A stretch of 64,000 bases of DNA from an uncultured Candidatus Saccharibacteria bacterium (GTDB taxonomy: Bacteria; Patescibacteriota; Doudnabacteria; UBA920). Every line of letters begins with the position of its first letter. Position 1 is the stretch's first letter. Of the stretch, positions 5,379-50,796 are shown in pieces. A program made the position numbers and the translations under genes. The stretch is taken from positions 76,961-140,960 of the forward strand of contig CAZHYL010000001.1 of the NCBI GenBank assembly GCA_964536745.1. Direction: 5' to 3'. The notes beneath the pieces were generated by a model. The model was not told the origin of the DNA. It worked only from the letters and a program-made list of their open reading frames with translations, and ran no database searches.

Positions 5379-5472
<94 letters not shown>

Positions 5473-7500: not shown

Positions 7501-7588
7501 GGAGAGGTCGCATAGTGGTTTAGTGCAACGGTCTTGAAAACCGTCAGGTCTAAAAGCCTCGAGGGTTCGAATCCCTCCCTCTCCGCCA
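7501..7588 (+). tRNA. tRNA-Ser (anticodon UGA), long variable arm, encoded CCA
   Basis: 5' 22 nt and 3' ~28 nt identical to the tRNA-Ser(GCU) at 5379; anticodon loop cuUGAaa. Confidence 0.85.
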
Positions 7589-7931: not shown

Positions 7932-7932
7932 A

Positions 7933-8406
7933 ATGGCAAAAGAACCACTAATAGTTTTTGACTGGGAAGCGCCAGAATTTAGGCACTACCCAAAAAATCC
8001 AGCATGGTACATTACCTTGTGTATCATCGTAGTACTTTTGGTAGTCTATGAGATAGTTCAAAAGGATTATTTTGGTGCACTAAGTTTATTCCTGATTGGT
8101 GGGTTTGTTCTATTCTTTGCAAGGCAAACTCCGAAAGTTGTGCCTATGCAAATTAGCGATCAAGGTATTCACATTAACGACGACTTAATCCCATATCAAA
8201 GAATTAAAAGATTTTGGGTTGTAGATGATGGAATTCATAAAACTCTGAACATTGAGACCACTGCTTACTTAAACCACGAGCTTACCGTAGAACTCGAAGA
8301 AATGGATGCCGATGAAGTTCGAGACTTTCTAATAGATATTTTGCCTGAACACGAACAGGTCGAACCAACCACAGCGCAAAAAGTTGCGCATCGTTTTAAA
8401 TTTTAA
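7933..8406 (+). CDS. Hypothetical membrane protein (two TM helices plus a soluble C-terminal domain)
   Basis: 157-aa ORF, tightly packed after the preceding gene. Confidence 0.45.
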   Translation: MAKEPLIVFDWEAPEFRHYPKNPAWYITLCIIVVLLVVYEIVQKDYFGALSLFLIGGFVLFFARQTPKVVPMQISDQGIHINDDLIPYQRIKRFWVVDDGIHKTLNIETTAYLNHELTVELEEMDADEVRDFLIDILPEHEQVEPTTAQKVAHRFKF

Positions 8407-8424: not shown

Positions 8425-8499
8425 CTCCTTGTAGCTCAACGGATAGAGCGCAAGCCTCCGGAGCTTGAAATGTAGGTTCGATTCCTGCCAAGGAGACCA
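8425..8499 (+). tRNA. tRNA-Arg (anticodon CCG), encoded CCA
   Basis: Acceptor ctccttg/caaggag, D-arm gctc...gagc, anticodon loop cuCCGga, T-arm GGTTCGATTCC. Confidence 0.8.
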
Positions 8500-12219: not shown

Positions 12220-12311
12220 AAGTATATATTTATATTAGTATTATACCTTAATGATTCTAAAATTTAGATAAAATAAAAGGGCAACCAAATTGGTTGCCCT
12301 AATAAACTTTT

Positions 12312-13457: not shown

Positions 13458-13521
13458 TGATTTTTAGTTAATTTTGTTTCAATATTCACCAAACTTAGGC
13501 TTTTTATTATTATAGCATATT

Positions 13522-14811
13522 TTAAAAGTTTTTGATATCTTTGCAAATATCTGACATGGTCGAGAAATACTCTGTCCCCGTTGCCCAGTCTACTAAAGAA
13601 CCAGCGGCAGAAGCGATAGTACCTATTACACCAGTGCCTCCAAAAGCAGAAGCCACACTAGACTCAACGCAAATATAAAAGAGTAGCCCAGCTAAAAATA
13701 AACTTACAATTACAAACACCACAAAATCTACGAATACTAAAATTGCTAACTCCCACTTTCGAGCAAGCCCTTGAAATTTACCAGCATCTTTAAAAAAGAT
13801 CCCAATAATTGCATATATATTTAGCACTATTAACAAAGGCACACCAAAGATCCAACCAACCACACTAAAAGTCAAACCAATGGTTATCAATAACCAAATG
13901 AACATAAGAATCGACATGTAGGCTTTTTCGGCATGGAATTTGGCTTTCTTAAGATTGCCATTTTTCAATTCAAAAGCCATATCGATTGCATCACCAATCC
14001 CTAAACTGATAGCGATATTAAGTAATAAAGAGACCAGCAATCCTAATCCTAAGGTCTCTGGACCAGACGCAGCTCCTGCTGCTGCAATTCCTGTTTGAAG
14101 TGCCTTTACTCCTGTTGCCGCAGCCTTTGCACCTTTTGCAGCAGTTGCGGCTGTCTTAGCGGTCTTAGCTGCTTTTGCAGCTCTTGCAGCTGCTTTAGCT
14201 CTCTGAGCAACTGCTTTCGCTGCCTGGAACCCCTCTTTTAAATTCCCTGGCTTCAAGCCTTTTTGAAAACCTTTTTGGAAAGCTCTATTACCAATCTTAT
14301 CGCCCACTTTATCTGACAGGTATTTCCGAGCACGCTGCTTAGCCTCTTCTTTTACCTTTTCTCGATTCTCTGGCGTGTCACTTTTAAAAGCATTCTTATC
14401 GCCTAAGAATTTTTCACCTGCCCATTTGGTTGGCTTATTTCGAACAACCGCATTAGCTCGTTTGTATGCCCTACTTGCTTGATCTCGCAAGCCACCTCTT
14501 CTAGAATCACGATACTGATCTTGGAACTCACCATCTTTCATCCCTTCTTTATTCATAGAAGGATACTCGCTATCCTGAAAATCTGATACGACTCTACCAG
14601 AAGACTGGTAGCCATCATTTGGGTCATCTTGAAAAGGCTGACGAGGATTCACAGAATTATACGAATCGTCATCCGTTAAACCGGTATTATTGTAACTATC
14701 TCGGATATTCTGACCTGGTTCATAATCATTATTAACAGAACCTCCCCCTGCAATATTGTTTGGAGGAGGTCCAGAATCGGAGCCTCGGTTTCTTGTATCG
14801 TCTAGCAACAT
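13522..14811 (-). CDS. Polytopic membrane protein with a ~230-aa disordered D/N/G/Q/K-rich N-terminus and an Ala/Lys repeat; last gene of the T4SS-like operon
   Basis: Low-complexity N-terminal region, then AKAAARAAKAAKTAKTAATAAKGAKAAATGVKA, then at least four TM helices. Confidence 0.55.
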   Translation of the reverse strand: MLLDDTRNRGSDSGPPPNNIAGGGSVNNDYEPGQNIRDSYNNTGLTDDDSYNSVNPRQPFQDDPNDGYQSSGRVVSDFQDSEYPSMNKEGMKDGEFQDQYRDSRRGGLRDQASRAYKRANAVVRNKPTKWAGEKFLGDKNAFKSDTPENREKVKEEAKQRARKYLSDKVGDKIGNRAFQKGFQKGLKPGNLKEGFQAAKAVAQRAKAAARAAKAAKTAKTAATAAKGAKAAATGVKALQTGIAAAGAASGPETLGLGLLVSLLLNIAISLGIGDAIDMAFELKNGNLKKAKFHAEKAYMSILMFIWLLITIGLTFSVVGWIFGVPLLIVLNIYAIIGIFFKDAGKFQGLARKWELAILVFVDFVVFVIVSLFLAGLLFYICVESSVASAFGGTGVIGTIASAAGSLVDWATGTEYFSTMSDICKDIKNF

Positions 14812-14815
14812 TATG

Positions 14816-16660
14816 TTAGGTATTTAGCTCTTCTTTGCTTTGCTCTATTTCTAATAACTGCTTTGGATCGGTAGTAATAATTTGATCCTCGACATAAGAT
14901 GCATAAATCTTAATTGCTGCGTGCTTAAGACCTGCGAAGAATATGCCTTCACCAACATCACTTTCGAGTAATAAATACTTTTCCCCTTCAGTTAAGAAGA
15001 AAGTTTCGGCAACAACATCAATAGCGGCTGGACTTTGCTTCAACAGCAACTGAATCGAAGAGTTCGTAACAATTGGTTTACCGTAAGGACTAGCCATAAA
15101 ATCGGCCACATCTTGAGTGATTGTGGTTAGCCCAAGATAATATTTACGAGCACGTTTTGCTATACCAAACACGAATCGTGCGCTATCTTCATGTTGCATC
15201 ATAATCCAAGCTTCATCCAAAACCAAAATTCTTCTCTTAAGCTCACTCCTAACAACGTTCCAAATATGACCTAAAATAATGTACATTGCTATTGGTCGCA
15301 GCTGATCTTCCAAATCTCGGATAGAGAAAACTAAAAGTTGATTCTTTAACACAACGTTAGTTTGGTTATTAAGCAATCCAGCAAAAGTTCCTTCTGTGAA
15401 CTTGCCTAATCTTTGAGCCAAACCTTCTCCTCCTACCATTCCAGAGAGAATCTCGATTAAATCACTCATAATTGGCATTTCTGCTGTAGCAAAATCGCTC
15501 TGTTCTGTAATATCTTTCTTAGCATAAGTTTGCCAAAGAGCCTTATCTAAAATAGCTTCTTCGGTTGGGTCCAGCTTACCAAGTACTAATCCCATTAATC
15601 CGACTAAATTAATAATTGCGCTACGTAAAATATCTCCCTTATCTTCATCGTCCAAACCAATAGGTAAATCGAAAGGATTGATACGAAAATCGGAGTTCAA
15701 AGAAATATTTATATAAGTACCACCAACTGCCTCTGCTAGATGCTGATACTCATTTTCTGGATCAATAACAATTACTTCAATACCAACCATTAACGATCGC
15801 AAGATTTCTAATTTAATCGAGTAAGATTTTCCTGCACCGGATTTAGCAAACACTACGAAATTAGCATTTTCCATTTGGAATCTATCAAACAAGATCAAAC
15901 TATTGTTATGCCGATTAATTCCATACAATATCCCATCATTACCAGTTAAATCAGAAGATACAAATGGAAAAGTACTAGATAACGGGCTAGTGTTTAGATT
16001 ACTGGTTACATCTAACTCATCTAATGCAAGAGGAAGTGTAGAATTAAATCCAGACTCCACAGCCAACATCGCTCTTTTTGTTACCACTAACTTAGCACCT
16101 AATGCACTCTCTAGAACTTTTGAATTTTTATCTAACTCGTCTAAAGTATCTGAATACAAAGTGAAGTACAGTGCGAACCGGAAAAAATGTTCTACACCTT
16201 GCTGTAGCTGATCTCGCAATTCTTCTACGTCATGATACGCAGTTTCTAGTAATGGGTTTCTTGCCAAACCTTTTTCTTGTTCAATGGTGATTTGAGATCC
16301 GATCTCACCAATCTTACTCTTTAACTTCTTAAGTACCATCCCAGAATCGATTGGATAGATAAACATAGAAACATCTAAAGCACTTTCCGAATTGATTATA
16401 AATGATAGCCAATTAGATGATAAAAACCTTGGGTAGGCCAGCACAAAGAAACTACGGCCAAATTTGCCATTTAGTTCAAAATAAGAATTAGTGAACTTAA
16501 GTGAAGACGGCGCCAATAAATCTTTTAAAGTAGTAACACCTTCCCGATACTCTTTTTCTACTTCTGCCAACTTTTTGTCCGCAGATATTTCGCCTTTAAG
16601 ATGCTCGAGTTCGGCCTTCTTCTTATCTATTTCGCTTTTATCTAATGAAAATAAAGCCAT
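14816..16660 (-). CDS. virB4: VirB4/TrbE/CagE-family type IV secretion ATPase, C-terminal ATPase module
   Basis: Walker A FAKSGAGKSY, Walker B ILVLDEAW, 614 aa. The start ATG overlaps the stop of the upstream ORF (TAATG). Confidence 0.85.
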   Translation of the reverse strand: MALFSLDKSEIDKKKAELEHLKGEISADKKLAEVEKEYREGVTTLKDLLAPSSLKFTNSYFELNGKFGRSFFVLAYPRFLSSNWLSFIINSESALDVSMFIYPIDSGMVLKKLKSKIGEIGSQITIEQEKGLARNPLLETAYHDVEELRDQLQQGVEHFFRFALYFTLYSDTLDELDKNSKVLESALGAKLVVTKRAMLAVESGFNSTLPLALDELDVTSNLNTSPLSSTFPFVSSDLTGNDGILYGINRHNNSLILFDRFQMENANFVVFAKSGAGKSYSIKLEILRSLMVGIEVIVIDPENEYQHLAEAVGGTYINISLNSDFRINPFDLPIGLDDEDKGDILRSAIINLVGLMGLVLGKLDPTEEAILDKALWQTYAKKDITEQSDFATAEMPIMSDLIEILSGMVGGEGLAQRLGKFTEGTFAGLLNNQTNVVLKNQLLVFSIRDLEDQLRPIAMYIILGHIWNVVRSELKRRILVLDEAWIMMQHEDSARFVFGIAKRARKYYLGLTTITQDVADFMASPYGKPIVTNSSIQLLLKQSPAAIDVVAETFFLTEGEKYLLLESDVGEGIFFAGLKHAAIKIYASYVEDQIITTDPKQLLEIEQSKEELNT

Positions 16661-17349
16661 TATGTTTCTATGTCCTTGATAGTTACTTTAGTTAACTGTC
16701 CAGCGTCTATTGCTGGGCCAGAGGCAAAATTATAGGAATTATAGACTAATTCGATTAACTGATCTGTTTTCATTCTTACAACTCTTAAACCTGAGCTAGA
16801 TAATGCAGCCGATACAGTATTCGTCCGCTCATCTAATTGCTTTTTATAAGCTACAAAGTTAGCTTCACGGTCGGAAATTTCTTTCGTCTTTCCAGAGCCA
16901 AACCACTTACTAAAGATACTTGTTGCCGCAGGATTGATACTGGTATCAAATGGCACAATCACATAAAAATTCTTATTCATTACATTAGCCGATTCAACTA
17001 ACCTATCGATAAATTCGATGTACTCTTGTGTTTGCATCCGCATCAACTCGTTAGTCTGCTTAAGCATCATAACTTTTAGTTTGTCTGTATACTCTGCGAT
17101 ATCCATCTTCCGAGATTGCATTAAAATCTGGACATGAAATTCCAAAGAATTCACAAAACGTTGATAGCTATAAATTAAAGCATTTTGTTCTTCTTCACTC
17201 TTTAAATCAAAATTAGTACTAGACACAGCTAAAACAGCTCGTAAAGTACCATTATTCATTACGATTACGTCATCTCTAATTTCAGACAATTTCAAAAACT
17301 GTTGAGTAGGAGAGCCTATTTTCTTTTTTGTCTTTATTTCATCTGCCAT
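16660..17349 (-). CDS. VirB4 N-terminal (CagE_TrbE_VirB-type) domain encoded as a separate ORF
   Basis: DDVIVMNNGTLRAVLAVSSTNFDLKSEEEQNALIYSYQRFVNSLEFHVQILMQSRK matches the conserved VirB4 N-domain pattern (..kDGsl.avl.l.G..fe...deel......l...l..l......H....r). No TM helices; 229 aa. Confidence 0.6.
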   Translation of the reverse strand: MADEIKTKKKIGSPTQQFLKLSEIRDDVIVMNNGTLRAVLAVSSTNFDLKSEEEQNALIYSYQRFVNSLEFHVQILMQSRKMDIAEYTDKLKVMMLKQTNELMRMQTQEYIEFIDRLVESANVMNKNFYVIVPFDTSINPAATSIFSKWFGSGKTKEISDREANFVAYKKQLDERTNTVSAALSSSGLRVVRMKTDQLIELVYNSYNFASGPAIDAGQLTKVTIKDIET

Positions 17350-17352
17350 AAT

Positions 17353-17808
17353 TTATTTTTGGATTTCCCTGTTTTGTTTGATTCTATTTATTAGATCTAA
17401 CTCTTCGGATTGTTGCTGCTGCAATATATAATTCAATTCTTTTATCTTAACTGCCGTTTCTTTAGCATTCTTGGGAGCAACTTTCTCTTCTACTATTTTT
17501 GGTGCCACTTGCTCAAATTCATCTCGCCCTTCCTTGTGATAAACATAAACTTTTGGACCAAACAAAAACTGAACAAAATTCCCAGCACTAGCATAGAGAG
17601 GTCGCCCATTTAATTTCCCAAATGTCAAAGCCAAAGCTGGAACTCCAGTGATACAACCCACTGCTATAGTAGCTGGAATGTTCTTACTCATAACGTAAAT
17701 TACAAAAGTAAATACAGATGCGCCAAAAACGATTGCAAATTGCTTAAAAGTTAAGCCAGCAATAATTTTATCTTCAACGTCTGTAAATTGTGGGACTGGA
17801 AACTGCAT
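17353..17808 (-). CDS. VirB3/PrgI-like small membrane protein
   Basis: 151 aa with two hydrophobic helices near the N-terminus, located immediately upstream of VirB4 as VirB3 usually is. Confidence 0.5.
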   Translation of the reverse strand: MQFPVPQFTDVEDKIIAGLTFKQFAIVFGASVFTFVIYVMSKNIPATIAVGCITGVPALALTFGKLNGRPLYASAGNFVQFLFGPKVYVYHKEGRDEFEQVAPKIVEEKVAPKNAKETAVKIKELNYILQQQQSEELDLINRIKQNREIQK

Positions 17809-17834
17809 AAAACTTACTTTACTATTATATCAAA

Positions 17835-18674
17835 CTAAATTCGGTTAACTTTAAGAGAAAGTAACAAATCGGTGATAAACTCAAACTCTTCTTGAGATAA
17901 AGGTAATACCCCATTCACCCCGCCAGCCAATTTCTGTTTACCATACTCTAAATAGTCTTTATAAAGCGGGCTTTGCTCTATATTACTCAATACTTGAAAA
18001 TAACCATACTGGCTCACAAACCCGAGCAGCTTCTGATAAAACTCCGATCGATACGATCCAGATAACACCGCTGAAGTAACTCCAGCTACATCATTGATGC
18101 TTTGAATGCTTAAACCAGAATCTTCATCCCTACCCATTGGCCTAACTCTTGAAGTAATGGGTTGCTTAGCTACCTCGACGCTGACATCGGACTGCGGCGG
18201 TTCAGGAACAGGGCTTGGCTTAGCTACAGGAGGTACCGGAGATGATCTTCGGTGAGACAGCTGATTAGGCATATTGCTAATATGAGGCATCGCCGTTGCC
18301 TTCGTACTCATCAATGGCAAACTAGAACCAGATGGTTTTGGTGGAAGAGGTCCAGAGGATTGCATTGGTCTAAGTCCCTCTGTATTTGATCTCTGAACAG
18401 GAATAGGTGTTGATGGTCTTGCCACCGGAGGGGGCACAACTGGACGAGAAACTTGAGGAGGGCTCACAGGTTGTGGTTTAACAAATTGAGGTGAAGTAGT
18501 TGTTGAGTTAGTAGTCGAGGGTTGAGGGGTTTTTAAAATCTCTTCCAATTCTGCAATCTGCTTATCATTCATCAAGGATGTTAAAGCCAACCAATCTTGT
18601 TTTTCTTGAGAGGTTAGAATGCTGGAGGTTTGTACCAACTGTTTAATTTGTAAAAGTCTTGCTTGGTCTATCAT
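17835..18674 (-). CDS. Hypothetical proline-rich protein (T4SS-like operon)
   Basis: 279 aa, a central Pro/Ser/Thr/Val-rich low-complexity segment, no TM helix. Confidence 0.55.
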   Translation of the reverse strand: MIDQARLLQIKQLVQTSSILTSQEKQDWLALTSLMNDKQIAELEEILKTPQPSTTNSTTTSPQFVKPQPVSPPQVSRPVVPPPVARPSTPIPVQRSNTEGLRPMQSSGPLPPKPSGSSLPLMSTKATAMPHISNMPNQLSHRRSSPVPPVAKPSPVPEPPQSDVSVEVAKQPITSRVRPMGRDEDSGLSIQSINDVAGVTSAVLSGSYRSEFYQKLLGFVSQYGYFQVLSNIEQSPLYKDYLEYGKQKLAGGVNGVLPLSQEEFEFITDLLLSLKVNRI

Positions 18675-19571
18675 TTATTTCTTTTTGCGTTGTTTTAAGT
18701 CTTCTAATTTTGCTTGAATCTCTTCTTCTTGTTTTGACTTAATCGTTTCATCTATATCGACATTGGTTCCTTGATCGAAAACCAGACCACGCCTTGGTTG
18801 GGCTTTCAAATCCAAATCTTTTGCTAACGGAATCTTGAAATCAGAAACCGTTCGCTCTTGCTTCTGAGGAACTATTGGGGGTAAAGGCCCTTCAGCAACA
18901 GAAGTCACATCTTCTTCATCTATTCCCGAAAAAGCCATATTTATATCTAATTCAGAAATTTGCTCTGGGACATCTTTAGGATCTACAACCTCTGGCAACA
19001 TTTCCCACATCAAGACATTTCTATCACAAAAATTGTACAACTTAAATATGGATTGAAGTATGAACTTCTGATATGGATCTAAATTTTTTACATTTTCACC
19101 ATCATTAAAATATTTAACTAGACCTAAAGCATCGCTACCCAAACCTTTTGATGAGGCAAAAGATAGATAATCACTTAGCCAACTAGAAATAACAGGCGCG
19201 CCCTTTTTAGAAGAAACAACAATTTCTTTTCCTCCCACCGGTTCATTATTGGTGCTGATTATATTTTTAACCTGTTTACATAACTCGACCTCATCCGGAA
19301 TGAAATTATACTGTGCCAAATACTCCTCAAACTGCTCAGCTAAATCAAACCCTTCTATCTCATAAGCGAGTAGTAAAGATTGCTTCATTAAGCTAGCAAG
19401 TTGTGTCGCGGATAAGCTATTCATTCTAATATAGCTTAACTGAATCTTTAACTCATTAGTTAAGGGTTGTCCTGTTTCATCTACTCCAGCAGTCAACACC
19501 TTGATCGCTAAGTACTGATCCTTTGTATTAAGAATATCTTGCAGCTTTATAATTTGATTTTGAGCGCTCAT
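18675..19571 (-). CDS. Hypothetical protein (T4SS-like operon)
   Basis: 298 aa, no TM helix; its start overlaps the stop of the upstream giant ORF (ATGA). Confidence 0.55.
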   Translation of the reverse strand: MSAQNQIIKLQDILNTKDQYLAIKVLTAGVDETGQPLTNELKIQLSYIRMNSLSATQLASLMKQSLLLAYEIEGFDLAEQFEEYLAQYNFIPDEVELCKQVKNIISTNNEPVGGKEIVVSSKKGAPVISSWLSDYLSFASSKGLGSDALGLVKYFNDGENVKNLDPYQKFILQSIFKLYNFCDRNVLMWEMLPEVVDPKDVPEQISELDINMAFSGIDEEDVTSVAEGPLPPIVPQKQERTVSDFKIPLAKDLDLKAQPRRGLVFDQGTNVDIDETIKSKQEEEIQAKLEDLKQRKKK

Positions 19572-22500
19572 ATTTTACCTCTTGCTTTGCCTAAGGAAGC
19601 GACAACGTCACCACCTAAACCTGTTAACGCACCAGCAGCATGCTTCTTTAATATTTCTGCAGCTGTGTAAGAACTCATCCTACTCTCCAGCTGTGCCAAA
19701 GCTTTTTTGTTACCTGAAAGCTTTTTAAGTTCTTCGACCTCGCCAGAAATGAATTCATTGTCACCACTTTCATTTTCGTAAAAGATTTCGTTTGGCTTCT
19801 TTTCCCAAACTTTTTTCTTTCCAGCGGTTTTAGATAACTTCTCCATCTGTTCTGAGCGGGAATTCCAATTCACCACACCCTGTGAATTAATATTTGTAGC
19901 TTTACCTAATGCCCGATTACCATTTTGCATATTTAAATTGGACAACTCGCTTGCCATTTGATTCCTGACAACAACTGGGACTCTACCAAATTTATCCGAC
20001 ATGAATTTTTTAAACCCATCGATATTATTCTTAAACCCATGCTCCGAAAGTAGATCTTTAAATCCTCCTTCTTTCGCGATTTTCTTGGCAATTGCCGAAG
20101 CTTGAGCTAGATTATTATTTTTCATGGCATTGTTAAACGCAGCTCTTAATGAGTCGACATCATCAACGCCTTCAAACTTTTTACCTTCTTCATGCTCACT
20201 CGCAAGTCTATCTGTTTGCTGTTGCTGACTTGCTGGGAATTGACGTTCTGCAACAATTTTCTCCATCCCAGCAAGTACTGTTGCTCGATCATTCGCATCC
20301 CACTTACTAACACCTAAATCAGTCCTTAAGTTATCATCCGCTGTTAGATCGCCTTGTAACTTGTCTATATCTGCTTGGATTACCTCAGCGTTAATCTCTA
20401 GAGCCTTATCCGCTTCCAGTACTGATGGCATAACCACAGCAGTAGACGGGACTGCCGTCGCCGGTAAAGCCTTAAGTATATTATCAATATTTTCTTTCGA
20501 AGTTTCGAGTGGGTTTCTTCGCGACTCATAGCCAGCCCGAATACTATCTATTTCAGTCTGTAGTTCTGTACCCCTTTGATTATTACCAGCTGCCAAAGCC
20601 TTAGCTCTTTGTTCATTCAACGGTGCTAGTTCTGTTTCTTCTGCCTTGTTTAATTCGTTAATATCCTCACCTAGACGTTTTTGATACACTTCTGCTTGTG
20701 CTTTGGTAATCTGATCACTGCCCAATCTTCGATAACTCGCGATGTCCGATAAGTCTGTCCTGCCTTGAGAAATTTTATCGCCGTTCTGAATCCTTTCATC
20801 ATCTGTTAACAGGCCTGCAAATCTATCTGACCTCCTCTGGACAGCTTTTGCACTATTACCTGTTAATTTCCAGGCTAACATTTTTGCTGCCTGTACCTTA
20901 TTTAGACCAGCCTGCTTGGCATAATCATCAAGTGGCTTTCTGGCTTTTTCTAAACGCTCCATTTGTGCTTTCTTTGGCTCAGACCACAAGCGATCCTTCA
21001 ATTTCTTACCCGTAATCATTGGTTGAGCGAGGGCAGACACACCAGCCGCCAATCGTGGATTATTCTCTTTTAGTCTATTAGATATCGAGTCTGCTGCATT
21101 ATCTTTAGCCCACATTCCAAGAGCTTTTGGACCTTTCCTAGTTGTCCAGTCCATACCCTTCTTAGCAAAGTCAACTACTTGTTTCGCGCCAGCGCCACCA
21201 AATGAAAGAGCAAACTTCATACCAATAAACAAGAACAACAAAACAATGAAATGAGAAATCACTGTTAATGCAAACTCGGTTAACTCTCCTGCGAACGTAC
21301 CTGTAGATTTAATCACATCTCCCATTCTTCCAGAGAAAGTAACTGCTACAAGAGCTGTAATATTTAAAAAGAAGGCAAGAATAGGTACTGTGAATGCATA
21401 CTTCAAAAAGTGACTCCACCACTGATTAGCATAAGTTCTTGTTTCTGGCAGGATCCTTCCAACATAAGCCAGAGGCGACAGCATATACAATACCCACAGA
21501 GCTACCAGCCGAATAAACATAAAAGCGATTAAAGCAACGAATGACCAAAACGCAGCCCCTGCAAGCACCCACAAAGCGATCGGTTTGAATAAATCACTGG
21601 CACTACCATCCACAGTAAAGGTATTCCCACTATCAGTTACACTATACTCGCCACTCCTAAAAGTTTTGATTGGATCTACCATTAACTTTTGCCCAAGAGC
21701 TTCTACAACTTTACTCTTAGCGGGTAAAAATTGAGACTGAACTGTGTCTGCGATACCAACAATACCTTGACCAATCACCAAACTAAAGTTAACTAACAAT
21801 GCCATTAACACTAAAGTGACAATAAACCCACGAGACTTTGAAGCATCTTCTTGCTGGAATAGAATTCTAAGTCCCATAACCAGCAGAGCGATAATGAAAG
21901 CAATATTGGAAATATTTCTAATAATAACCCAGCCTGGATAAATTACATTTACAAACTCGTCTCTGTATGGCTGAATTTTTAACAGTGCGTTCAATACAGG
22001 AACCAAAATGTACGCAAAAATATAGTACATTATGGACGTCATCAATAGAATTATGTACGCGATTACTTTTCGAAGAAAAGCAAATAGATTACTTGCAATT
22101 CCACCGTCTTGAAGCTCTGAACTCTTGGCCTCTGCTGTGACAGTATCCGCAAATCCATATTTCGCAAAGTTTGGATCAGAGTCACACTTACTCTTTTGAT
22201 CTTCTGGAACATCCGCCTTACAAGCTGTTTTAATCTCGTCTAGAGTACGATAAACCTCAACAGTAAACTTAGCTTCGCTATTATATAAAACATATACATT
22301 GGTATTTTGACCAATCCCTACTTTTGCAGAAAAACCTTTTATAAAAGCAACAACCTTAAACTCATTAGTAGCGATGGGTTTACCTGCTTCAGCTTTATCA
22401 TTCCTATTACGAAGCCAAGCAGAACTATTTAAGACAGGGCTAAACTGATCTGGTAAGGGTTTTTCCGTACCGTTACCGTTAGTCAAACCTTTATCTGATT

Positions 22501-23587
22501 CAAAAAATGCTTTCGAACAATCGGTACTAAAATAGGCTGGGGCGCAAGACTCTAAATTTTTAACCGGAGTATCAGCATAATTAAACCCTAAATTTGAACC
22601 CTTATATGCAGGTTCTAAATCATAATTGAACCAAGAATTATCCTTTTTTGGTAATGTAAAAGTATCGTTGACAGTCAATTGCAAAGCAGGATCTTCGGAT
22701 GTCCACTTCATGTAGATCGGATCCGGTCCATTATTCCCGCTAAAGGTCATGGAGTTATCTGAAAGCAATACTCTGTATTTTGAACGCAAACCTTTTCCCG
22801 CACTGTTTGCAGTTACAGTCATCCCAATTTTTGTATAATCAACCCCCGTCTTAGCACCGGTACCAACAGGCCCCCCTGCTGTTACGCCATCGGGTAGTGG
22901 TGGAAGTTGAGTTGGCTGGTCACCCTGTATAGCTTGATCACTATAAGAAATGCCAAGAATTCCCGGGAACTTATAGGAAGTCCAAGATTGTCCGTAATAT
23001 ACATATACAGAAGTGTTAATCAAACAAGGCTGCTTATCACAAACTGTTGAATTTGAAGTGGGAGCATTAGGGAAAAACGACTTCACTGTAGCAGGAACCC
23101 TTGCCGCATAGCCATACTCAGTGATTTTAGTCTTATCTGATGAATCTGCCACAGTATAAAACTGGGCTGGAACTTCCAGTGGTTTATCAGATTTTACAGT
23201 CCTTGTTACTACGTCACCCCTTGCTGATAAAGTCTGTATAGTTGCATAAGCGTAAATATAAAAATTATGCTTTTGTTTGTTATCTTTACAATACTTTGCA
23301 AGCTCTAATGTATAAGAGTCTTTTATATCAAAAGCAACAGCAAACTGAATATTAAACTGTTCATTCCAATTCAATTTCTTTCTGTCAGAGATAGGTCCAG
23401 TGGGAATGGATTTCCAACCGCTACTATCTAATTCACAAGAAGAAACAGCAGCATTAACCGTAGGGGTAATGGCAAAAACAGGCATAAACAAAGAAGCTAT
23501 GATAACACTTAACAGTGCTACCATGCTTCTTTTCTTCAAATTTTGAGTCAGAAATTTAAATAATTTTGATATTGGTTTCAAAGCCAC
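19568..23587 (-). CDS. Giant VirB6/TrbL-like polytopic membrane protein (1339 aa) with a signal peptide, a large N-terminal extracellular domain and a ~540-aa hydrophilic coiled-coil C-terminal extension
   Basis: Signal/TM at aa ~20-45, a ~450-aa extracytoplasmic domain, at least six TM helices between aa ~500-790 in a VirB6-like arrangement, then a charged coiled-coil tail. Confidence 0.6.
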   Translation of the reverse strand: MALKPISKLFKFLTQNLKKRSMVALLSVIIASLFMPVFAITPTVNAAVSSCELDSSGWKSIPTGPISDRKKLNWNEQFNIQFAVAFDIKDSYTLELAKYCKDNKQKHNFYIYAYATIQTLSARGDVVTRTVKSDKPLEVPAQFYTVADSSDKTKITEYGYAARVPATVKSFFPNAPTSNSTVCDKQPCLINTSVYVYYGQSWTSYKFPGILGISYSDQAIQGDQPTQLPPLPDGVTAGGPVGTGAKTGVDYTKIGMTVTANSAGKGLRSKYRVLLSDNSMTFSGNNGPDPIYMKWTSEDPALQLTVNDTFTLPKKDNSWFNYDLEPAYKGSNLGFNYADTPVKNLESCAPAYFSTDCSKAFFESDKGLTNGNGTEKPLPDQFSPVLNSSAWLRNRNDKAEAGKPIATNEFKVVAFIKGFSAKVGIGQNTNVYVLYNSEAKFTVEVYRTLDEIKTACKADVPEDQKSKCDSDPNFAKYGFADTVTAEAKSSELQDGGIASNLFAFLRKVIAYIILLMTSIMYYIFAYILVPVLNALLKIQPYRDEFVNVIYPGWVIIRNISNIAFIIALLVMGLRILFQQEDASKSRGFIVTLVLMALLVNFSLVIGQGIVGIADTVQSQFLPAKSKVVEALGQKLMVDPIKTFRSGEYSVTDSGNTFTVDGSASDLFKPIALWVLAGAAFWSFVALIAFMFIRLVALWVLYMLSPLAYVGRILPETRTYANQWWSHFLKYAFTVPILAFFLNITALVAVTFSGRMGDVIKSTGTFAGELTEFALTVISHFIVLLFLFIGMKFALSFGGAGAKQVVDFAKKGMDWTTRKGPKALGMWAKDNAADSISNRLKENNPRLAAGVSALAQPMITGKKLKDRLWSEPKKAQMERLEKARKPLDDYAKQAGLNKVQAAKMLAWKLTGNSAKAVQRRSDRFAGLLTDDERIQNGDKISQGRTDLSDIASYRRLGSDQITKAQAEVYQKRLGEDINELNKAEETELAPLNEQRAKALAAGNNQRGTELQTEIDSIRAGYESRRNPLETSKENIDNILKALPATAVPSTAVVMPSVLEADKALEINAEVIQADIDKLQGDLTADDNLRTDLGVSKWDANDRATVLAGMEKIVAERQFPASQQQQTDRLASEHEEGKKFEGVDDVDSLRAAFNNAMKNNNLAQASAIAKKIAKEGGFKDLLSEHGFKNNIDGFKKFMSDKFGRVPVVVRNQMASELSNLNMQNGNRALGKATNINSQGVVNWNSRSEQMEKLSKTAGKKKVWEKKPNEIFYENESGDNEFISGEVEELKKLSGNKKALAQLESRMSSYTAAEILKKHAAGALTGLGGDVVASLGKARGKI

Positions 23588-23659
23588 AATCGTGAAAATA
23601 ATGAGCTATTTTTCTCTCAATCTTTAAAATAATTATACCACACCGACCCAAATTTTCCC

Positions 23660-23698
23660 AAATAATTTTAAAAGGCAATCCCGTGACAGGATTGCCTT
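23660..23698 (-). terminator. Intra-operon hairpin plus U-run (attenuator/partial terminator) between the Cys-rich gene and the VirB6-like gene
   Basis: aaggcaatcc-cgtgaca-ggattgcctt is a perfect 10-bp stem. On the minus strand it is followed by TTTTAAAATTATTT. Confidence 0.45.
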
Positions 23699-23709
23699 CA
23701 AAATTCTTG

Positions 23710-24846
23710 CTATTGAGCCAGACAGTCTTGGATTCCGATAGACGAATCTAGACCGAATATACATTCTGTGATCGTACTTATGGATTCAGTGGCCTTCTGT
23801 CTACCAAGGTTTGTATAATTTTGTGCTTGTGTCTGTGTAGTATTGTACTGACTATCACACTGACTCACACTATCAGCGAATACATCTCCTTCTTGAGGTG
23901 AACTTGTTTGTGATGGAGAAATAATTGGAGGTGAAGTTGTGGCTTGCTTATTTGTGATACACCCCAAATAACTTTGTGGTTGGTATGTTGTTGAAGGATT
24001 AGTTCCTCCTCCAGTGTCTGTTCCTGGATCTAATACATCAGATAATCCCGGTACTGCAGATAAATTGTCTATCGAAACATTTAGCACCCGACCCGGCCTT
24101 CCTTGGCCATCCCATACTCCAGATAATCTAGAAACCTCTGTGAACAAATCATTGCATTCTGGATTAGATGGAGTAGAAGAACAATACTCCACACAACTCT
24201 TCGCATCACTACAACCCGCTGGTGCATTACCAGCGTAAATTAAATTATTCAAGCTGCCGATAATATTATTTTCCAAACCACTGATCGCACCGACTCCATA
24301 GTTAAACGATTTATCCTTACTTACATCTTGAGCTCCAAGAACTCTAGAACCTTGCTCTAAGCCAAGTGCCAAAACAGCACATTCTTGTTCGGAAGATTTT
24401 TGATCACACAGCTCTGCGCAACTGTTCAACCCATCACAGGTTGCAAAATAACCTGCTTGTAAATAACTAGAAAAAGTTAGGGTCTTTTTTAATTGCTCCG
24501 CTGTCATACTTCCGTTACGGAAACTAACTAGTGCGCAAATTTCTAAGTTGTTTGAATCTTCACAAAATTCAAAACAAGATTTTTGATCCATACAATTTCC
24601 AAGTTGTGCAATCGGATAAACAAAACCTCGAGGAAAAAATGGAATACTCACATTCTGCCCAAGAACATTACCTGAAGATTTAGAAAGAGTTGGTGAGCTC
24701 AACTGTTGGCTAATACGCTGGGTTAGTTCTAATTTTGTTGTCGCCGCAGTTGCAAAATTCTGTGACACTAAGAAAAGACCTAGCAGCATTACAGCTACCA
24801 GAGTATATGAATAAAGATACTTTTTAATTTGCGAATGGGTTAACAT
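23710..24846 (-). CDS. Secreted cysteine-rich protein with three tandem C-x4-C-x3-C-x7-9-C modules
   Basis: Signal peptide, then repeats CMDQKSCFEFCEDSNNLEIC / CDGLNSCAELCDQKSSEQEC / CSDAKSCVEYCSSTPSNPEC. Confidence 0.65.
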   Translation of the reverse strand: MLTHSQIKKYLYSYTLVAVMLLGLFLVSQNFATAATTKLELTQRISQQLSSPTLSKSSGNVLGQNVSIPFFPRGFVYPIAQLGNCMDQKSCFEFCEDSNNLEICALVSFRNGSMTAEQLKKTLTFSSYLQAGYFATCDGLNSCAELCDQKSSEQECAVLALGLEQGSRVLGAQDVSKDKSFNYGVGAISGLENNIIGSLNNLIYAGNAPAGCSDAKSCVEYCSSTPSNPECNDLFTEVSRLSGVWDGQGRPGRVLNVSIDNLSAVPGLSDVLDPGTDTGGGTNPSTTYQPQSYLGCITNKQATTSPPIISPSQTSSPQEGDVFADSVSQCDSQYNTTQTQAQNYTNLGRQKATESISTITECIFGLDSSIGIQDCLAQ

Positions 24847-25078
24847 AAATATCTTTTAAAGGGTTAGCTTGAGTGCTACTTTCAGACTCACCTAGCACCT
24901 CGCCAGCAGACGGTAATTCTGCAGGATTCTCTGTTGGAGCTGAGCTTAAATCGATGTTTGTTGGTTTTGGTAATTCTGCTGAAAAAATTCCACCCCTAAC
25001 AAATAAGGCATAATATACTCCAAAGACCAGTAAAACTACCCCTATTAATAAAGCTATATTTTTTAAGTTAAAAGTCAT
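24824..25078 (-). CDS. Small bitopic membrane protein (84 aa), overlapping the downstream gene by 23 nt
   Basis: N-terminal TM helix (IALLIGVVLLVFGVYYALFV) and a Pro/Glu-rich tail; tightly spaced in the operon. Confidence 0.4.
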   Translation of the reverse strand: MTFNLKNIALLIGVVLLVFGVYYALFVRGGIFSAELPKPTNIDLSSAPTENPAELPSAGEVLGESESSTQANPLKDIYVNPFAN

Positions 25079-25080
25079 TA

Positions 25081-27039
25081 CTAGAATCCTCCCCCATAGT
25101 AACCTCTCGGTGAGTTATATGGTATTACCCTAAGTGTTGTAGTCGCACCGTTTACAGCAGGGGATGGACTAGGCGCAGAATGCTGAGCAGTATTAACTGT
25201 TATATTGCTATTAGTAATTGGAATTGTTCCACTCGTTGGATTGGTCTTCTTTGGCGGTGTTTTTAAAGCTTGGCTAAATATTGTCTCTAAGAACGATTTA
25301 CCTGTTTCGGTTAACACAGAAGGGGTTTTACTTGGATTCAAAATAATTCCACCAAGTACCTTGCTCATAAGGTTTTCTGCATTCTTTGAAGCTTGTTGTG
25401 GATTGTCTTGGTTGTAACGAATTTGCTCGCCAACCATTTCTTGTGTAATTCCTTCGATGACACCCTTAGATAAACTTCCTGCATCATTAATTGAACTACA
25501 CTGCTCTGTAATACCACCATCAACTTTCGTAACGACATCTTTCATATTGTCTATCGCAGCCTTTGTTTCATTAACTGCTGGAATATATTCTGAATGAGCC
25601 ATCTCGTGCTGTGCTTCGTACTGTTTTTGAGTCTGAGAAGCTTCTAAATATTTTTTGGCTGCTTCGTATGCATCAGTAATTTTTTGCTTATCGGCTTCTT
25701 CGACTGGTTTACAAGTTCGTGTGCTTAAGAATCCTGCACCATTATTCACTTCTAATTTTGCAGATTCACGGCTAGCAGCCATTAGTTTTCCAAACTCTTC
25801 TTGGTACTGACTAAATACAATAGAAGAGTCGCACTCATTAGACATAACTCCACTTATTTTTCTGAAGACTCTTTCGTCATTCCAGTTTTCTAGCTCATAC
25901 ATCTGATAACATTTATCATAGAGCTCGGTTTCCACTAATGCCTTAGCTGTATCCAATGCTTGCTTTTTTGCGGTTTCGTCTGTAGCAAGCTCTGCGTTCA
26001 AGAATGAAGTCATAATTAGTTGCTTTTGCTTGTTCCCATCATAATTCTTTTTAATCATTGCCGGTGCATAGACTTGCTTTGCAAGCGCATCTACAATTTT
26101 TTCATAATTCTGAACAGTGAGTTTTGGTTTCACTTCATTTATTGCTTCGGTTGTCTTTTGTTCTGTAACATCTACAGCAACTGATGCCGCGATAGCTTTA
26201 AAAATATCTTGCTTAGCTTTATTTAACTGTTGTTCCAAACTTGCAACATGCCCATTGATAGCACTCATTCTTGGTTCTATTTCAGCCAAAGTATCTACAT
26301 ATGCTTCTTTTAATTGTTCGTTCCAAGCCGCAATCACTAAAGTCTGTTTTAATGTCTGCTGAACTGTCTTGTAGCAAACTTGGCGATATTTAAGAATTCC
26401 CAATTTCTTTGTGATATACAATGTTAAATTAGCTTTGGTTTGATCGCCTAATGTTAACAAACTAGTGGAAAGTTTTTCATTGTTGGTAGCTCTTGGAGCT
26501 TTGGTTGGAATTTGATTTGCCGCTTCGTGAATAATAGTTTGGTTACTTGCAACAGTCGTTGAATCCCCTGCTACATCGCTATTACCAGAGCCTCCCCCTG
26601 TATTGCCACTGCCATTATCGTACCCATCTGGAACATTATAGTTATCTGGAATTACAAGTCTATCATCTAACTCTTCAATGTTTACTCCATCCGAGCCATT
26701 GTTGCTTGTTAAATCATTAAGAGTACTAATAGCCGATAAGTCACCTCCGAGAACATCACAAGTCGACGTAGCTATTCCTAAACCTCGTCTTACTGGACCA
26801 TACTGAACAGGTAAGCCTTCAACAAATTGTTTTACAGTTTGCAATGATGCCTGCACAGTGTTCATCGCTGAATCAATTCCAAGCAACGCACCCTGAATTG
26901 CGTGACCAACAACCTGAATCCCTGCATTGAGCCAATCAAACCCCCACAACGCATCACTGTTCTTTGGTTGAAAAACTACAGTAGCGCTTAGGACTAAACA
27001 GATTGCAATAATTATTTTTTTAAATCTAAATAATTTCAT
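25081..27039 (-). CDS. Large secreted protein (652 aa), T4SS-like operon
   Basis: N-terminal signal peptide, a Gly/Asn/Ser-rich segment, 8 Cys, coiled-coil-prone alpha regions. Confidence 0.6.
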   Translation of the reverse strand: MKLFRFKKIIIAICLVLSATVVFQPKNSDALWGFDWLNAGIQVVGHAIQGALLGIDSAMNTVQASLQTVKQFVEGLPVQYGPVRRGLGIATSTCDVLGGDLSAISTLNDLTSNNGSDGVNIEELDDRLVIPDNYNVPDGYDNGSGNTGGGSGNSDVAGDSTTVASNQTIIHEAANQIPTKAPRATNNEKLSTSLLTLGDQTKANLTLYITKKLGILKYRQVCYKTVQQTLKQTLVIAAWNEQLKEAYVDTLAEIEPRMSAINGHVASLEQQLNKAKQDIFKAIAASVAVDVTEQKTTEAINEVKPKLTVQNYEKIVDALAKQVYAPAMIKKNYDGNKQKQLIMTSFLNAELATDETAKKQALDTAKALVETELYDKCYQMYELENWNDERVFRKISGVMSNECDSSIVFSQYQEEFGKLMAASRESAKLEVNNGAGFLSTRTCKPVEEADKQKITDAYEAAKKYLEASQTQKQYEAQHEMAHSEYIPAVNETKAAIDNMKDVVTKVDGGITEQCSSINDAGSLSKGVIEGITQEMVGEQIRYNQDNPQQASKNAENLMSKVLGGIILNPSKTPSVLTETGKSFLETIFSQALKTPPKKTNPTSGTIPITNSNITVNTAQHSAPSPSPAVNGATTTLRVIPYNSPRGYYGGGF

Positions 27040-27773
27040 AAGTCGTAATTATACTTACGAATCAAATCCATACGTTCCGATTCCATTGCATTTGTAATTT
27101 CAAAAAATAAAACTCCAGCCGCTGCGCGGTCCTTAGAGCTTTGATTATGAGCGATGGTATCCAGCATGTTTAAAACTACACCGTACTGCATCAATTTTAA
27201 TCTGTGAAATCGAACAAGAGGTTTTGGAACAGCAAGTGTTTTTAATTCACTAACAATTCTTTCGGCAACTGGAATAGCTTCAGCTGCTGCAGTAGAATCT
27301 TTGGTGCTTAACACACTCAGAACAATTACCGATCCATAGTAGTCTTCAATCAAAGTGGATTGATCTACATATGACTCGATTGAAAACTCATCTACATCTA
27401 CTGCGTTAACAGGAATAGTTTGTAAATTGTCGTCGCTTAAAATATGGCTTATACTTTGTTCAGCCTCTGTAGATAAACCTAGAACCGAACCCTCTGAAAA
27501 GGCAGGATCGATTAAAGCAGATAGATTATTTTTTTCTTCAACTAAATTATCAATTCCAGTGGAAGAGACTGGTGGTAAGTTTACCTCATCTATCGATTTC
27601 ACTTCTGTTGTATCGTTCGCTTGAAGAAACTTAAGTCCGGTTAAGTTACCAAGTAATAAAGGTTCCCTTGCAAAAGTAAGTCCAATTGTGACGATAACAA
27701 AAAATCCAATAAGTCCATAATGACCTAAAGTAAATCCGAGCGATTCAAACTTCCCAAATAGTTTTTGTTTCAT
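27036..27773 (-). CDS. Bitopic membrane protein, first gene of the T4SS-like operon (VirB8-like by size and topology only)
   Basis: 245 aa with a single TM at aa ~20-42 and an extracytoplasmic domain; ATGA overlap with the next gene. Confidence 0.5.
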   Translation of the reverse strand: MKQKLFGKFESLGFTLGHYGLIGFFVIVTIGLTFAREPLLLGNLTGLKFLQANDTTEVKSIDEVNLPPVSSTGIDNLVEEKNNLSALIDPAFSEGSVLGLSTEAEQSISHILSDDNLQTIPVNAVDVDEFSIESYVDQSTLIEDYYGSVIVLSVLSTKDSTAAAEAIPVAERIVSELKTLAVPKPLVRFHRLKLMQYGVVLNMLDTIAHNQSSKDRAAAGVLFFEITNAMESERMDLIRKYNYDL

Positions 27774-27830: not shown

Positions 27831-27911
27831 TAGAAAAAATTAAATTGTTTTTTGATTTTTGTTTCGAAAACTCTTAACTTGTACTATAATTATAGCAGAA
27901 ATTAAGAAAAT

Positions 27912-28370
27912 TTGCAAGTCATGAAACGTTCATTCATTGCCATTCTAATTTTAGTTCCCCTACTGCTTTTTGTTAGCTGTGTTTCGTTAAAAAACAGTGG
28001 CAATTACGATCATACTATTTCAGTAGATGGTAAAAACTTATTAGTTGAAATTGTAAACACCGACGATAGCAGGAGCAAAGGACTATCTGGGAGATCTAGT
28101 CTCACAGAAGAACAAGGCATGTTGTTTGATTTCACAAATTCTGAATTCCGTAGGCCAGGGTTTTGGATGAAAGATATGAAATTTGACATAGACATCATTT
28201 GGATTAACAATAATGAAATTGTTGGCATCACAGATAATGTTCCCGCAACCTATAACAATGTTAACCTACCGTCGTACTACCCACCATCGGACATAACTCA
28301 TGTACTGGAAGTAAATTCTGGTTGGGCAGAAAGAAACAATGTGAATGTTGGTGACAAAGTTAACTTCTGA
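27912..28370 (+). CDS. DUF192 (COG1430) family secreted protein
   Basis: Signal peptide; GLSGR..L....GMLFDF......FWMKDM...DIIWI pattern typical of DUF192. Confidence 0.7.
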   Translation: MQVMKRSFIAILILVPLLLFVSCVSLKNSGNYDHTISVDGKNLLVEIVNTDDSRSKGLSGRSSLTEEQGMLFDFTNSEFRRPGFWMKDMKFDIDIIWINNNEIVGITDNVPATYNNVNLPSYYPPSDITHVLEVNSGWAERNNVNVGDKVNF

Positions 28371-35637: not shown

Positions 35638-35638
35638 A

Positions 35639-50745: not shown

Positions 50746-50796
50746 AAAATTTATTTTAAATAATTAATTAAACTCACTTCCCTCCAGTTGTTCGAC

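Follow-up and report, generated by a model that had tools for sequence, protein, structure and literature searches.

Type IV secretion systems (T4SSs) of Patescibacteria are treated as established in recent reviews (PMC12857230, PMC11665869). VirB4 was found in 2,417 of 3,035 Patescibacteria genomes, and nearly all of these proteins fell into one clade nested within the mating-pair formation class FATA (MPF-FATA). The commonest partner of VirB4 was TrsD, PrgI and VirB6 were common, and VirB8 and VirB1 were rarely detectable. The systems are chromosomal, often with KsgA nearby. Relaxases were present in only 103 of the genomes and rarely near virB4, and VirD4-like matches, found in 2,918 genomes, were mostly encoded far from it (Quinonero-Coronel et al. 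2025, PMC12102498). Here we describe a T4SS gene cluster on the minus strand of a 64-kb stretch of contig CAZHYL010000001.1 (hereafter the window). It most probably represents a chromosomally fixed, vertically inherited, non-conjugative T4SS of a Doudnabacteria-like genome, which belongs to the Patescibacteria clade and descended from monoderm MPF-FATA systems.

In the same survey, comF, recG and radA were linked with the T4SS in the class ABY1, and in other classes dnaA and dnaN were located next to virB4. TrsD was assigned to the pGO1 subclass. VirB2-like pilins were common in Saccharimonadia and Microgenomatia, yet not universal. Doudnabacteria are given as a class apart from ABY1, with a single entry among the genome-table rows listed (PMC12102498). 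In Southlakia epibionticum, growth on the host requires the T4SS cluster (SEML1_0006-0019; Wang et al. 2023, PMC10633639), in which no coupling or relaxase protein is recognisable (PMC10633639, PMC12857230). Its locus table contains a VirB6-like protein, PrgI, a 293-aa protein and a 612-aa VirB4 (PMC10633639). VirB4, VirB6 and PrgI were also found together with GntX in TM7x (McLean et al. 2020, PMC7427843).

The cluster studied here consists of eleven open reading frames (ORFs) of at least 60 aa on the minus strand, which run from position 27773 down to 13522 and which we named O1 to O11 (84 to 1,339 aa; Table 1). The distances between consecutive genes from O1 to O11 are −4, +2, −23, +122, −4, 0, +26, +3, −1 and +4 nt. 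The ORF listing thus bears out the co-directional minus-strand cluster described in the initial annotation, which had however counted 13 genes. The same series of eleven is present in the gene calls of public contigs that carry an identical VirB4. The spacing of −23 to +26 nt given before applies to most of the gaps, but not to the one of 122 nt between O4 and O5. Furthermore, of the two additional polytopic proteins that had been listed, hydropathy left just one besides VirB6 and PrgI, namely O11. When the neighbouring PD40 gene is included (see below), the cluster comprises 12 genes at positions 12312-27773.

Table 1. Genes and putative regulatory signals of the T4SS gene cluster (positions in the window; TM, transmembrane; AF2, AlphaFold2; MFE, minimum free energy)
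Feature	Position	Strand	Basis
Promoter-like site TTGCAA-17-TGcTATAAT (extended −10), 5′ of O1	27889..27917	-	consensus scan, 10/12 plus TG
O1, 245-aa bitopic protein, one N-terminal TM helix and helical ectodomain, lineage-specific	27036..27773	-	hydropathy, AF2
O2, 652-aa secreted protein, signal-peptide-like N-terminus, long helical middle, lineage-specific	25081..27039	-	hydropathy, alignment
O3, 84-aa single-TM protein, part of variable insert	24824..25078	-	hydropathy
O4, 378-aa secreted protein, part of variable insert	23710..24846	-	motif reading
Terminator-like hairpin with U-tract, directly 3′ of the O4 stop codon	23668..23697	-	MFE −23.3 kcal/mol, z = −5.2
Internal promoter-like site TTGGGA-18-TGgTATAAT before the VirB6 gene	23632..23661	-	10/12 plus TG, consensus match only
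O5, extended VirB6/TrbL-like protein, 1339 aa	19568..23587	-	PF04610
O6, 298-aa soluble cytoplasmic protein, lineage-specific	18675..19571	-	no TM segment
O7, 279-aa soluble protein: three-helix N-domain, ~135-aa Pro-rich disordered linker, helical C-domain	17835..18674	-	AF2
O8, PrgI/VirB3-like protein, 151 aa, two TM helices	17353..17808	-	PF12666
O9, TrsD-like protein, 229 aa, putative detached VirB4 N-terminal part	16660..17349	-	NCBIfam matches below cutoffs
O10, VirB4 ATPase, 614 aa, without ~160 N-terminal profile positions	14816..16660	-	NF045971 and Pfam
O11, 429-aa membrane protein: disordered acidic N-terminus, basic segment, at least 4 TM helices	13522..14811	-	hydropathy
PD40/TolB-like beta-propeller, N-terminal membrane anchor, 381 aa	12312..13457	-	PF07676 PD40
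Intrinsic-terminator-like hairpin with U-tract after the PD40 gene	12278..12300	-	MFE −17.6 kcal/mol, z = −4.0

The motor of the system is encoded by O10. Against NF045971, the NCBIfam model of the CD1110-family VirB4-like conjugal transfer ATPase, the protein scored 347.6 bits (cutoff 325, E 1.4e-103), spanning profile positions 161-728 of 752. In Pfam it was matched by P-loop_TraG (2.6e-25), AAA_10 and DUF87. Both Walker motifs are intact (Walker A, AKSGAGKS, aa 272-279; Walker B, ILVLDE, aa 478-483), and Walker A is retained in 77 of 78 VirB4 orthologues. Among the PDB sequences, the best match was 4AG5, a 'type IV secretory pathway VirB4 components-like protein' (E 1.8e-43), and TrwK was matched at 6e-5. 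With a score above the curated cutoff and both Walker motifs in place, the VirB4 ATPase proposed in the initial annotation is confirmed.

The stop codon of O9 overlaps the start codon of VirB4 (TAATG). O9 was matched by the N-terminal parts of five VirB4/TrsD models, which agree with each other and all scored under their curated cutoffs. Among them are VirB4_plasma (Mbov_0397 VirB4; profile positions 97-233 of 894, E 2.6e-9), the TrsD/TraD family (E 2.6e-6), CD1110 VirB4 (positions 2-131 of 752) and VirB4_CagE (positions 19-182). In addition, a precomputed PF26593 TraC-like match is recorded for a protein identical to O9. An hhalign comparison of the O9 family with full-length PrgJ was not significant, the single-sequence target being too weak. 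Because O9 covers CD1110 positions 2-131 and O10 starts at position 161, VirB4 appears to be split here into a TrsD-like gene and an ATPase gene.

O8, located two genes upstream of VirB4, scored 34 bits against PF12666 (gathering score 27, E 4.5e-8), as had been anticipated for a VirB3/PrgI-like protein, and was detected in 70 of the 80 related loci (defined below). The giant O5 has, according to hydropathy, a signal peptide, a ~450-aa ectodomain, six or seven TM helices (aa ~497-801) and a ~540-aa cytoplasmic tail. Its full length stayed just under the gathering score of PF04610 (TrbL; 25.3 versus 25.9 bits, E 1.5e-5, profile positions 2-214 of 215), whereas the TM domain alone scored 28.7 bits and thus passed. 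The VirB6-like giant is therefore borne out, if marginally. The TrbL family was matched by 33 of 41 O5 orthologues. These range from ~800 to 1430 aa and are conserved mainly across the TM domain. The sole PDB sequence matched by the O5 family profile was TrwI, the VirB6 of R388 (E 0.04). The profile searches suggested beforehand as a check on VirB4 and VirB6 thus returned VirB4 above its curated cutoff and the VirB6 TM domain above its gathering score.

We next compared the cluster with its relatives. Scanning a single genome for each GTDB species yielded 330 stretches with VirB4 relatives, of which the best 80 are referred to as the related loci. These 80 VirB4 proteins are 61-96% identical to O10 and all derive from Patescibacteria metagenome-assembled genomes (MAGs), most of them labelled Candidatus Doudnabacteria or generically 'uncultured Saccharibacteria'. 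In loci with 83-96% VirB4 identity, the order VirB6-O6-O7-PrgI-TrsD-VirB4-O11-PD40-RadA-(RecG) is kept. Below ~80% identity, O6 and O11 are no longer detected. The order VirB6-O7-PrgI-TrsD-VirB4-PD40-RadA-RecG persists to ~74%, and at ~65% (L076) most of the core order can still be seen, with no match for O7 or RecG. In the relatives, proteins similar to O1 (~240 aa) and to the secreted O2 (~650 aa) precede VirB6. The comparison of synteny, also suggested beforehand, showed a core gene order common to dozens of Doudnabacteria-labelled MAGs.

The genes of the cluster differ strongly in their rate of evolution. Between the window and its closest relative (L010), the identity is 95.6% for VirB4, 82% for TrsD, 78% for PrgI, 68% for RadA, 53% for PD40, 52% for O11, 44% for VirB6, 38% for both O6 and O7, and ~24% for O2. 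The fastest-evolving genes of the operon are thus those for secreted and ectodomain proteins, and the VirB6 ectodomain is barely alignable. Only 46% of the third codon positions of virB4 are identical in the same comparison, and 56% of the identical residues are encoded by different codons. The synonymous sites are saturated, and the high identity of the VirB4 protein can therefore be ascribed to purifying selection, not to recent transfer. Moreover, VirB4 diverged less than RadA in all 54 loci compared (median divergence ratio 0.49), and the median ratio relative to RecG is 0.39. These comparisons suggest that VirB4 is a vertically inherited and strongly constrained core gene.

Among the plasmid matches listed for VirB4, all were Firmicute or Actinobacterial replicons with at most 36% identity. 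These replicons share the order large membrane protein, small protein, TrsD-like protein, VirB4, and homologues of O9 are found directly upstream of virB4 on Firmicute plasmids. On a Pontibacillus plasmid, for instance, the order is a pilin-like protein, a 779-aa, a 116-aa and a 274-aa protein, VirB4 and an endopeptidase. An identical VirB4 protein was found on 21 contigs from several metagenomes (for example ERZ28614697 and SRR34704505) and an identical O2 on a 141,566-bp NCBI contig, which suggests that the organism or very close strains recur in public data.

To look for missing parts and neighbouring genes, Pfam scans took in all non-shadow window ORFs of 100 aa or more, plus several smaller ones. 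No family match for a type IV coupling protein (T4CP; VirD4/TcpA), VirB11, a relaxase or an integrase was found in these ORFs. In addition, tblastn with PcfC and PcfG of pCF10 gave zero matches in six frames, both in the window and in the 80 related loci. This agrees with the initial annotation, according to which VirD4, VirB11 and relaxase are lacking in the 64 kb, with tblastn adding to the Pfam scans in the case of VirD4 (PcfC) and relaxase (PcfG). Repeat scans found no att-like flanking direct repeats around the cluster; the only tandem and dispersed repeats found were those within the Ala/Lys-rich coding region of O11, apart from chance matches. No VirB4 relatives were found in a scan of viral contigs.

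The GC content is uniform across the window (0.35-0.42). Core genes flank the cluster, which is 13 kb away from one end of the window and 36 kb from the other, and the window also encodes ClpB, KsgA, IleRS, ArgRS, IF3, L20, ribonucleotide reductase and NrdR. Exact-protein look-ups past the window ends led to short contigs, with nothing new beyond ~0.8 kb. Several recombination and competence genes surround the T4SS, encoding RecX (1414-1896), ComFC/GntX (4668-5339), RecG (8503-10557), RadA (10918-12219), PcrA/UvrD (29258-31384) and RecO (34903-35703), all within ~25 kb. Since the relatives found here are labelled Doudnabacteria, the radA/recG/comF neighbourhood appears to reach beyond ABY1. 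The proposal of a chromosomal, non-conjugative T4SS of the kind known from ultra-small epibionts is supported by the relatives, the housekeeping flanks, the uniform GC content and the published description.

Compared with the described systems, the locus most resembles the T4SSs of the Patescibacteria clade. It is likewise chromosomal and relaxase-less, with a giant VirB6 followed by the order PrgI, TrsD-like protein, VirB4, and shares with them a long cytoplasmic tail of VirB6, KsgA and recombination or competence genes nearby, and many unannotated partners. The VirB4 proteins are of similar length (612 aa in Southlakia, 614 aa here). Several differences from the Saccharimonadia model were found. 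The array of VirB2-like pilins (PF18895) was not detected in the locus or window, and neither was an NTF2/VirB8-like protein. Instead of a DD-peptidase or lysozyme gene, virB4 is followed on its 3′ side by the genes for O11 and the PD40 propeller. The soluble O6 and O7 are located between VirB6 and PrgI, and PrgI has 151 aa here compared to 300 aa there. The lineage-specific O1, O2, O6, O7 and O11 and the PD40 propeller come in addition to the parts of that model. This kind of system has already been described (2020-2025), and the locus adds an example with modest class-specific differences.

With the monoderm MPF-FATA systems (Prg/Pcf of pCF10; Trs/Tra of pGO1 and pSK41), the locus shares a CD1110-family VirB4, PrgJ being annotated in the same NCBIfam family, as well as a PrgI-family VirB3, a TrsD-like gene next to VirB4 and the lack of outer-membrane core components. 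However, O10 is only ~24% identical to PrgJ of pCF10, and no counterpart of PcfC, PcfG, the PrgK-type hydrolase, the VirB8-like PrgL/PrgD or the LPXTG adhesin is present here. In contrast to these systems, the locus is chromosomal, vertically inherited and not mobile. ComB of Helicobacter pylori and the archaeal Ced system are likewise VirB4-based and relaxase-less, and ComB is also without VirD4 and VirB11. VirB7, VirB9 and VirB10 are part of ComB, which is a diderm system. The Ced models gave 47.9 bits for CedB (cutoff 700) and 19 bits for CedD (cutoff 600), which reflects generic VirB4 similarity only. The Ptl system of Bordetella and the VirB system of Brucella also work without a coupling protein (PMC12102498, PMC12857230). 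However, they are diderm MPF-T systems with VirB2 and VirB5-11, whose substrates pass the inner membrane via Sec, and they show no sequence affinity to the locus beyond the T4SS core.

Around this core, O1-O4, O6, O7 and O11 had no family match in Pfam or NCBIfam, and the family profiles of O2, O6, O7, O9 and O11 gave nothing meaningful against all PDB sequences. Hydropathy indicated signal-peptide-like N-termini for O2, O4 and O5, and single N-terminal anchors for O1, O3 and the PD40 protein, whereas O6, O7, O9 and O10 are soluble. Six of the proteins form a lineage-specific set, with O6 and O7 cytoplasmic, O1, O2 and O11 inserted in the membrane or located outside it, and the PD40 propeller as the sixth.

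O1 has homologues in only 16 clusters, none with a Pfam domain, and a ~240-aa protein occupies its position in relatives. An AF2 model based on this 16-sequence alignment reached a mean predicted local distance difference test score (pLDDT) of 68, with an all-alpha C-terminal domain at pLDDT 80-91, and matched no PDB fold at E<=0.001. O1 is the VirB8-sized bitopic protein of the initial annotation. We rejected an identity with VirB8, as the model is all-helical, unlike the NTF2-like fold, no PDB fold was matched, and hhalign against PrgL aligned the TM helix only.

O2 is probably an extracellular component. Its homologues fall into ten clusters without a Pfam domain, its family profile matched neither PDB sequences nor Pfam, and a secreted protein of ~650 aa is found at its position in relatives. 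Cysteines C94, C222, C443 and C514 are invariant, and C377 nearly so, in the family alignment (A8). O3 and O4, which occur in some relatives (L018, L029) but not in others, constitute a variable insert. O3 was found in one of the 80 related loci (L018), many of which end before its position is reached. O4, with three C-x6-C-x3-C-x8-C motifs (aa 85-104, 137-156 and 212-231), is present in L018 and L029; no such ORF is found at its position in L010, L001 and L069.

O6 had no match in Pfam, NCBIfam or the PDB. By BLASTP it was matched in 29 related loci, at the same position in those examined. Both domains of O7 were modelled with pLDDT 80-96, compared to ~50 for the linker, and the model resembled only generic three-helix bundles among PDB folds (E>2). 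The structure predictions proposed for the unassigned proteins have thus been run for O1 and O7, and neither model had a significant PDB fold match. The homologues of O7 form only 39 clusters, of which the few with a taxon label are Doudnabacteria MAGs, and its invariant residues include E24, W28, M35-Q39, Y225, S235, Y241 and G245. O7 is possibly an adaptor or scaffold.

O11, at the same position in 19 related loci, contains an Ala/Lys-rich, histone-H1-like segment (aa 111-245, net charge +23), which precedes the polytopic membrane domain and is encoded by short imperfect DNA repeats (14120-14206). The single match of the O11 profile to a PDB sequence was low-complexity Lys/Ala and was discarded. 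The PD40 protein matched the TolB propeller model below its cutoff (E 6.6e-10). Its gene lies outside the interval noted initially. Since it adjoins the T4SS genes in 71 of the 80 related loci and since the terminator of the cluster follows it, it is probably the twelfth gene, and the last of a second transcription unit.

The promoter-like site upstream of O1 is, as a consensus match only, the best of the whole region. A 36-nt palindrome (I5, 27872-27907) overlaps its −10 element and may be an operator. The 122-nt gap between O4 and O5 contains both a terminator-like hairpin, which coincides with the inverted repeat I16 and for which none of 200 shuffles was equally stable, and the internal promoter-like site. 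In the folding scan, no hairpin was found in the 64-nt spacer between O11 and the PD40 gene. The hairpin after the PD40 gene stands between the cluster and radA, and again none of 200 shuffles was equally stable. As the O4/O5 gap thus combines a hairpin with a promoter-like site, the O11/PD40 spacer has no hairpin and a terminator follows PD40, the consensus and folding predictions suggest two transcription units, O1-O4 and O5-O11 plus PD40.

Together, these features would fit the following mechanism. A hexamer of VirB4 would be held at the membrane by PrgI/VirB3 and the detached TrsD-like N-domain, and would power the assembly of, and the transport through, a channel based on VirB6. In this monoderm, the extracellular part of this channel would probably consist of the VirB6 ectodomain together with the secreted O2 and O1 and would contact the host bacterium. 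In the cytoplasm, the place of a coupling protein might be taken by adaptors, for which O6, O7, the VirB6 tail and the basic O11 domain are candidates. In this way the machine could move macromolecules between epibiont and host without conjugation. The combination of a slowly evolving motor and fast-evolving ectodomains fits a host-contact device, and by analogy with S. epibionticum the locus is probably needed for the epibiotic lifestyle. Regarding cargo and direction, the export of proteins or effectors is a possible function, though short of probable, and the import of DNA or nucleotides is a minor possibility, slightly favoured by the recombination-rich neighbourhood; other functions, or assembly only, make up the rest. 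Conjugation by this locus is very unlikely.

Several points weigh against the reading of the locus as a non-conjugative T4SS of the Patescibacteria clade. The lack of VirD4 holds for the window alone, and a VirD4-like gene may be located elsewhere in the genome. In the scanned ORFs, no Pfam match for VirB8 and none for a VirB2-like pilin (PF04956/PF18895) was found, and a search of small ORFs for VirB2-like pilins found no two-TM candidate in or beside the operon. As VirB8 homologues are rare across the phylum (PMC12102498), members of the Patescibacteria clade need not have one. Pfam and NCBIfam also gave no peptidoglycan hydrolase within the operon. A CHAP+LysM peptidoglycan hydrolase is encoded 4 kb from the cluster on the opposite strand (31788-33014, +). 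The CHAP domain of this protein shares 40% identity with the one in PrgK of pCF10, and the hydrolase could fill a VirB1-like role or, in view of a PcsB-like match, just serve in cell division. We identified no substrate, effector or secretion signal. VirB6 and TrsD were assigned from scores close to the curated cutoffs or under them, the placement of VirB4 in the Patescibacteria clade is suggested by identity levels (61-96%, versus at most 36% for plasmid proteins), and essentiality is extrapolated from a different class, the Saccharimonadia (Southlakia).

Of the alternatives, the one closest to these data is a DNA or nucleotide importer like ComB or the Ced system of Sulfolobales, in which the VirB4/VirB6 channel would take up DNA of the host or the environment and hand it to the neighbouring recombination proteins. 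We consider it somewhat unlikely. As in ComB, VirB4, VirB3 and VirB6 occur without VirD4, VirB11 or a relaxase in the window, but no ComEC, ComEA or DprA gene was found there either, and the CedB score remains far below its cutoff. The position amid RecX, ComFC/GntX, RecG, RadA, PcrA and RecO and the conserved order T4SS-PD40-RadA-RecG would be in line with import, whereas the strong terminator between the cluster and radA, and the location of recG on the opposite strand, argue against it. Co-localisation of comF, recG and radA with the T4SS in ABY1 (PMC12102498) and of GntX within the T4SS region of TM7x (PMC7427843) also supports this alternative, but such linkage is class-specific, with dnaA and dnaN next to virB4 in other classes (PMC12102498). 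The strongly basic Ala/Lys-rich cytoplasmic segment of O11 also counts in favour of import, and the T4SS has been named as a candidate route for nucleotide acquisition (PMC11665869). In Southlakia, however, competence needs comEC, and the comEC deletion is viable, whereas the T4SS is essential (PMC12857230). A more specific version holds that the Doudnabacteria variant, for which we detected neither a pilin nor a hydrolase within the operon, is a dedicated importer of host DNA or nucleotides, working with ComFC, RecG, RadA, RecX, RecO and PcrA, with O6, O7 and the basic domain of O11 replacing the coupling protein; this we regard as unlikely. If it were true, the conserved VirB4 and the hypervariable ectodomains would represent an essential uptake motor behind host-specific contact surfaces, and a concrete function could be given to these T4SSs, which PMC11665869 describes as completely unknown in their role.

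A device for adhesion or surface-structure assembly only, in which VirB4 drives the assembly of O2, O1 and the VirB6 ectodomain into an extracellular filament or adhesin without any translocation, is quite improbable. VirB4 does function in pilus biogenesis (PMC12102498), and the fastest-evolving parts are secreted proteins or ectodomains (O2 ~24% versus VirB4 96%), as expected for host-contact surfaces. However, no VirB2-like pilin was detected in the scanned ORFs, and the conserved cytoplasmic O6, O7 and 540-aa VirB6 tail suggest cytoplasmic partners or substrates. That the cluster belongs to an integrative and conjugative element or an integrated plasmid, with its relaxase, coupling protein and origin of transfer (oriT) outside the window, is highly improbable, even though the closest relatives of VirB4 and TrsD outside Patescibacteria, among the matches listed, are on Firmicute and Actinobacterial plasmids and VirD4-like homologues are encoded elsewhere in most Patescibacteria genomes (PMC12102498). 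The 64 kb revealed no relaxase, T4CP, integrase or att-like repeats, core genes lie on both sides of the cluster, and the RadA/RecG synteny is conserved across genomes whose RadA proteins differ by 25-50%. The uniform composition and the saturated synonymous sites, which exclude recent transfer, point in the same direction, as does the scarcity of relaxases, particularly near virB4, among the 3,035 genomes (PMC12102498). Finally, canonical VirB8, VirB1 and T4CP were not found at the locus, as would be the case if an ancient conjugation system were decaying and had lost its function. This explanation is scarcely credible, given that all ORFs are intact, that Walker A is retained in all but one of the orthologues, that VirB4 has diverged less than RadA and RecG and that its identical copies recur on 21 contigs from several metagenomes.

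Further genes were observed in the window. Between ComFC and RecG, an ECF-type (extracytoplasmic function) sigma factor is followed by a DUF5667 protein that may be an anti-sigma factor (5641-7340, +). Two small membrane proteins are encoded between tRNA genes (7614-8406, +), the second of which (DUF5673) has a weak, sub-threshold match to the conjugal membrane protein TcpD (E 0.002). Three tRNA genes are located at 5379-5472, 7501-7588 and 8425-8499. A tmRNA gene (45824-46212) encodes the tag ANAYKKVVAAFQNAQLAPAFA, and SmpB is encoded nearby (42828-43265). Several ORFs of 179-280 aa without family match are found at 46295-47029 and 50098-52175, one with a low-complexity Thr/Gln/Ala/Pro-rich tail. 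Towards the end of the window, a run of genes on the minus strand (60196-63857) encodes proteins with type IV pilin-like N-termini (N_methyl and PilX_N matches), probably the minor pilins of a type IV pilus.

A large share of uncultivated bacterial diversity belongs to the Patescibacteria, which depend on host cells, and no T4SS before that of Southlakia had been shown to be essential for the growth of its own bearer. The locus described here adds a well-resolved case from a class that has been sampled sparsely. It separates the invariant parts of the system, namely the split VirB4, PrgI and the TM core of VirB6, from the lineage-specific or hypervariable ones, which are O1, O2, O6, O7, O11, the PD40 protein and the ectodomains. 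While the current picture of these systems is unchanged, such a map of conservation helps to choose targets for structural and genetic studies.

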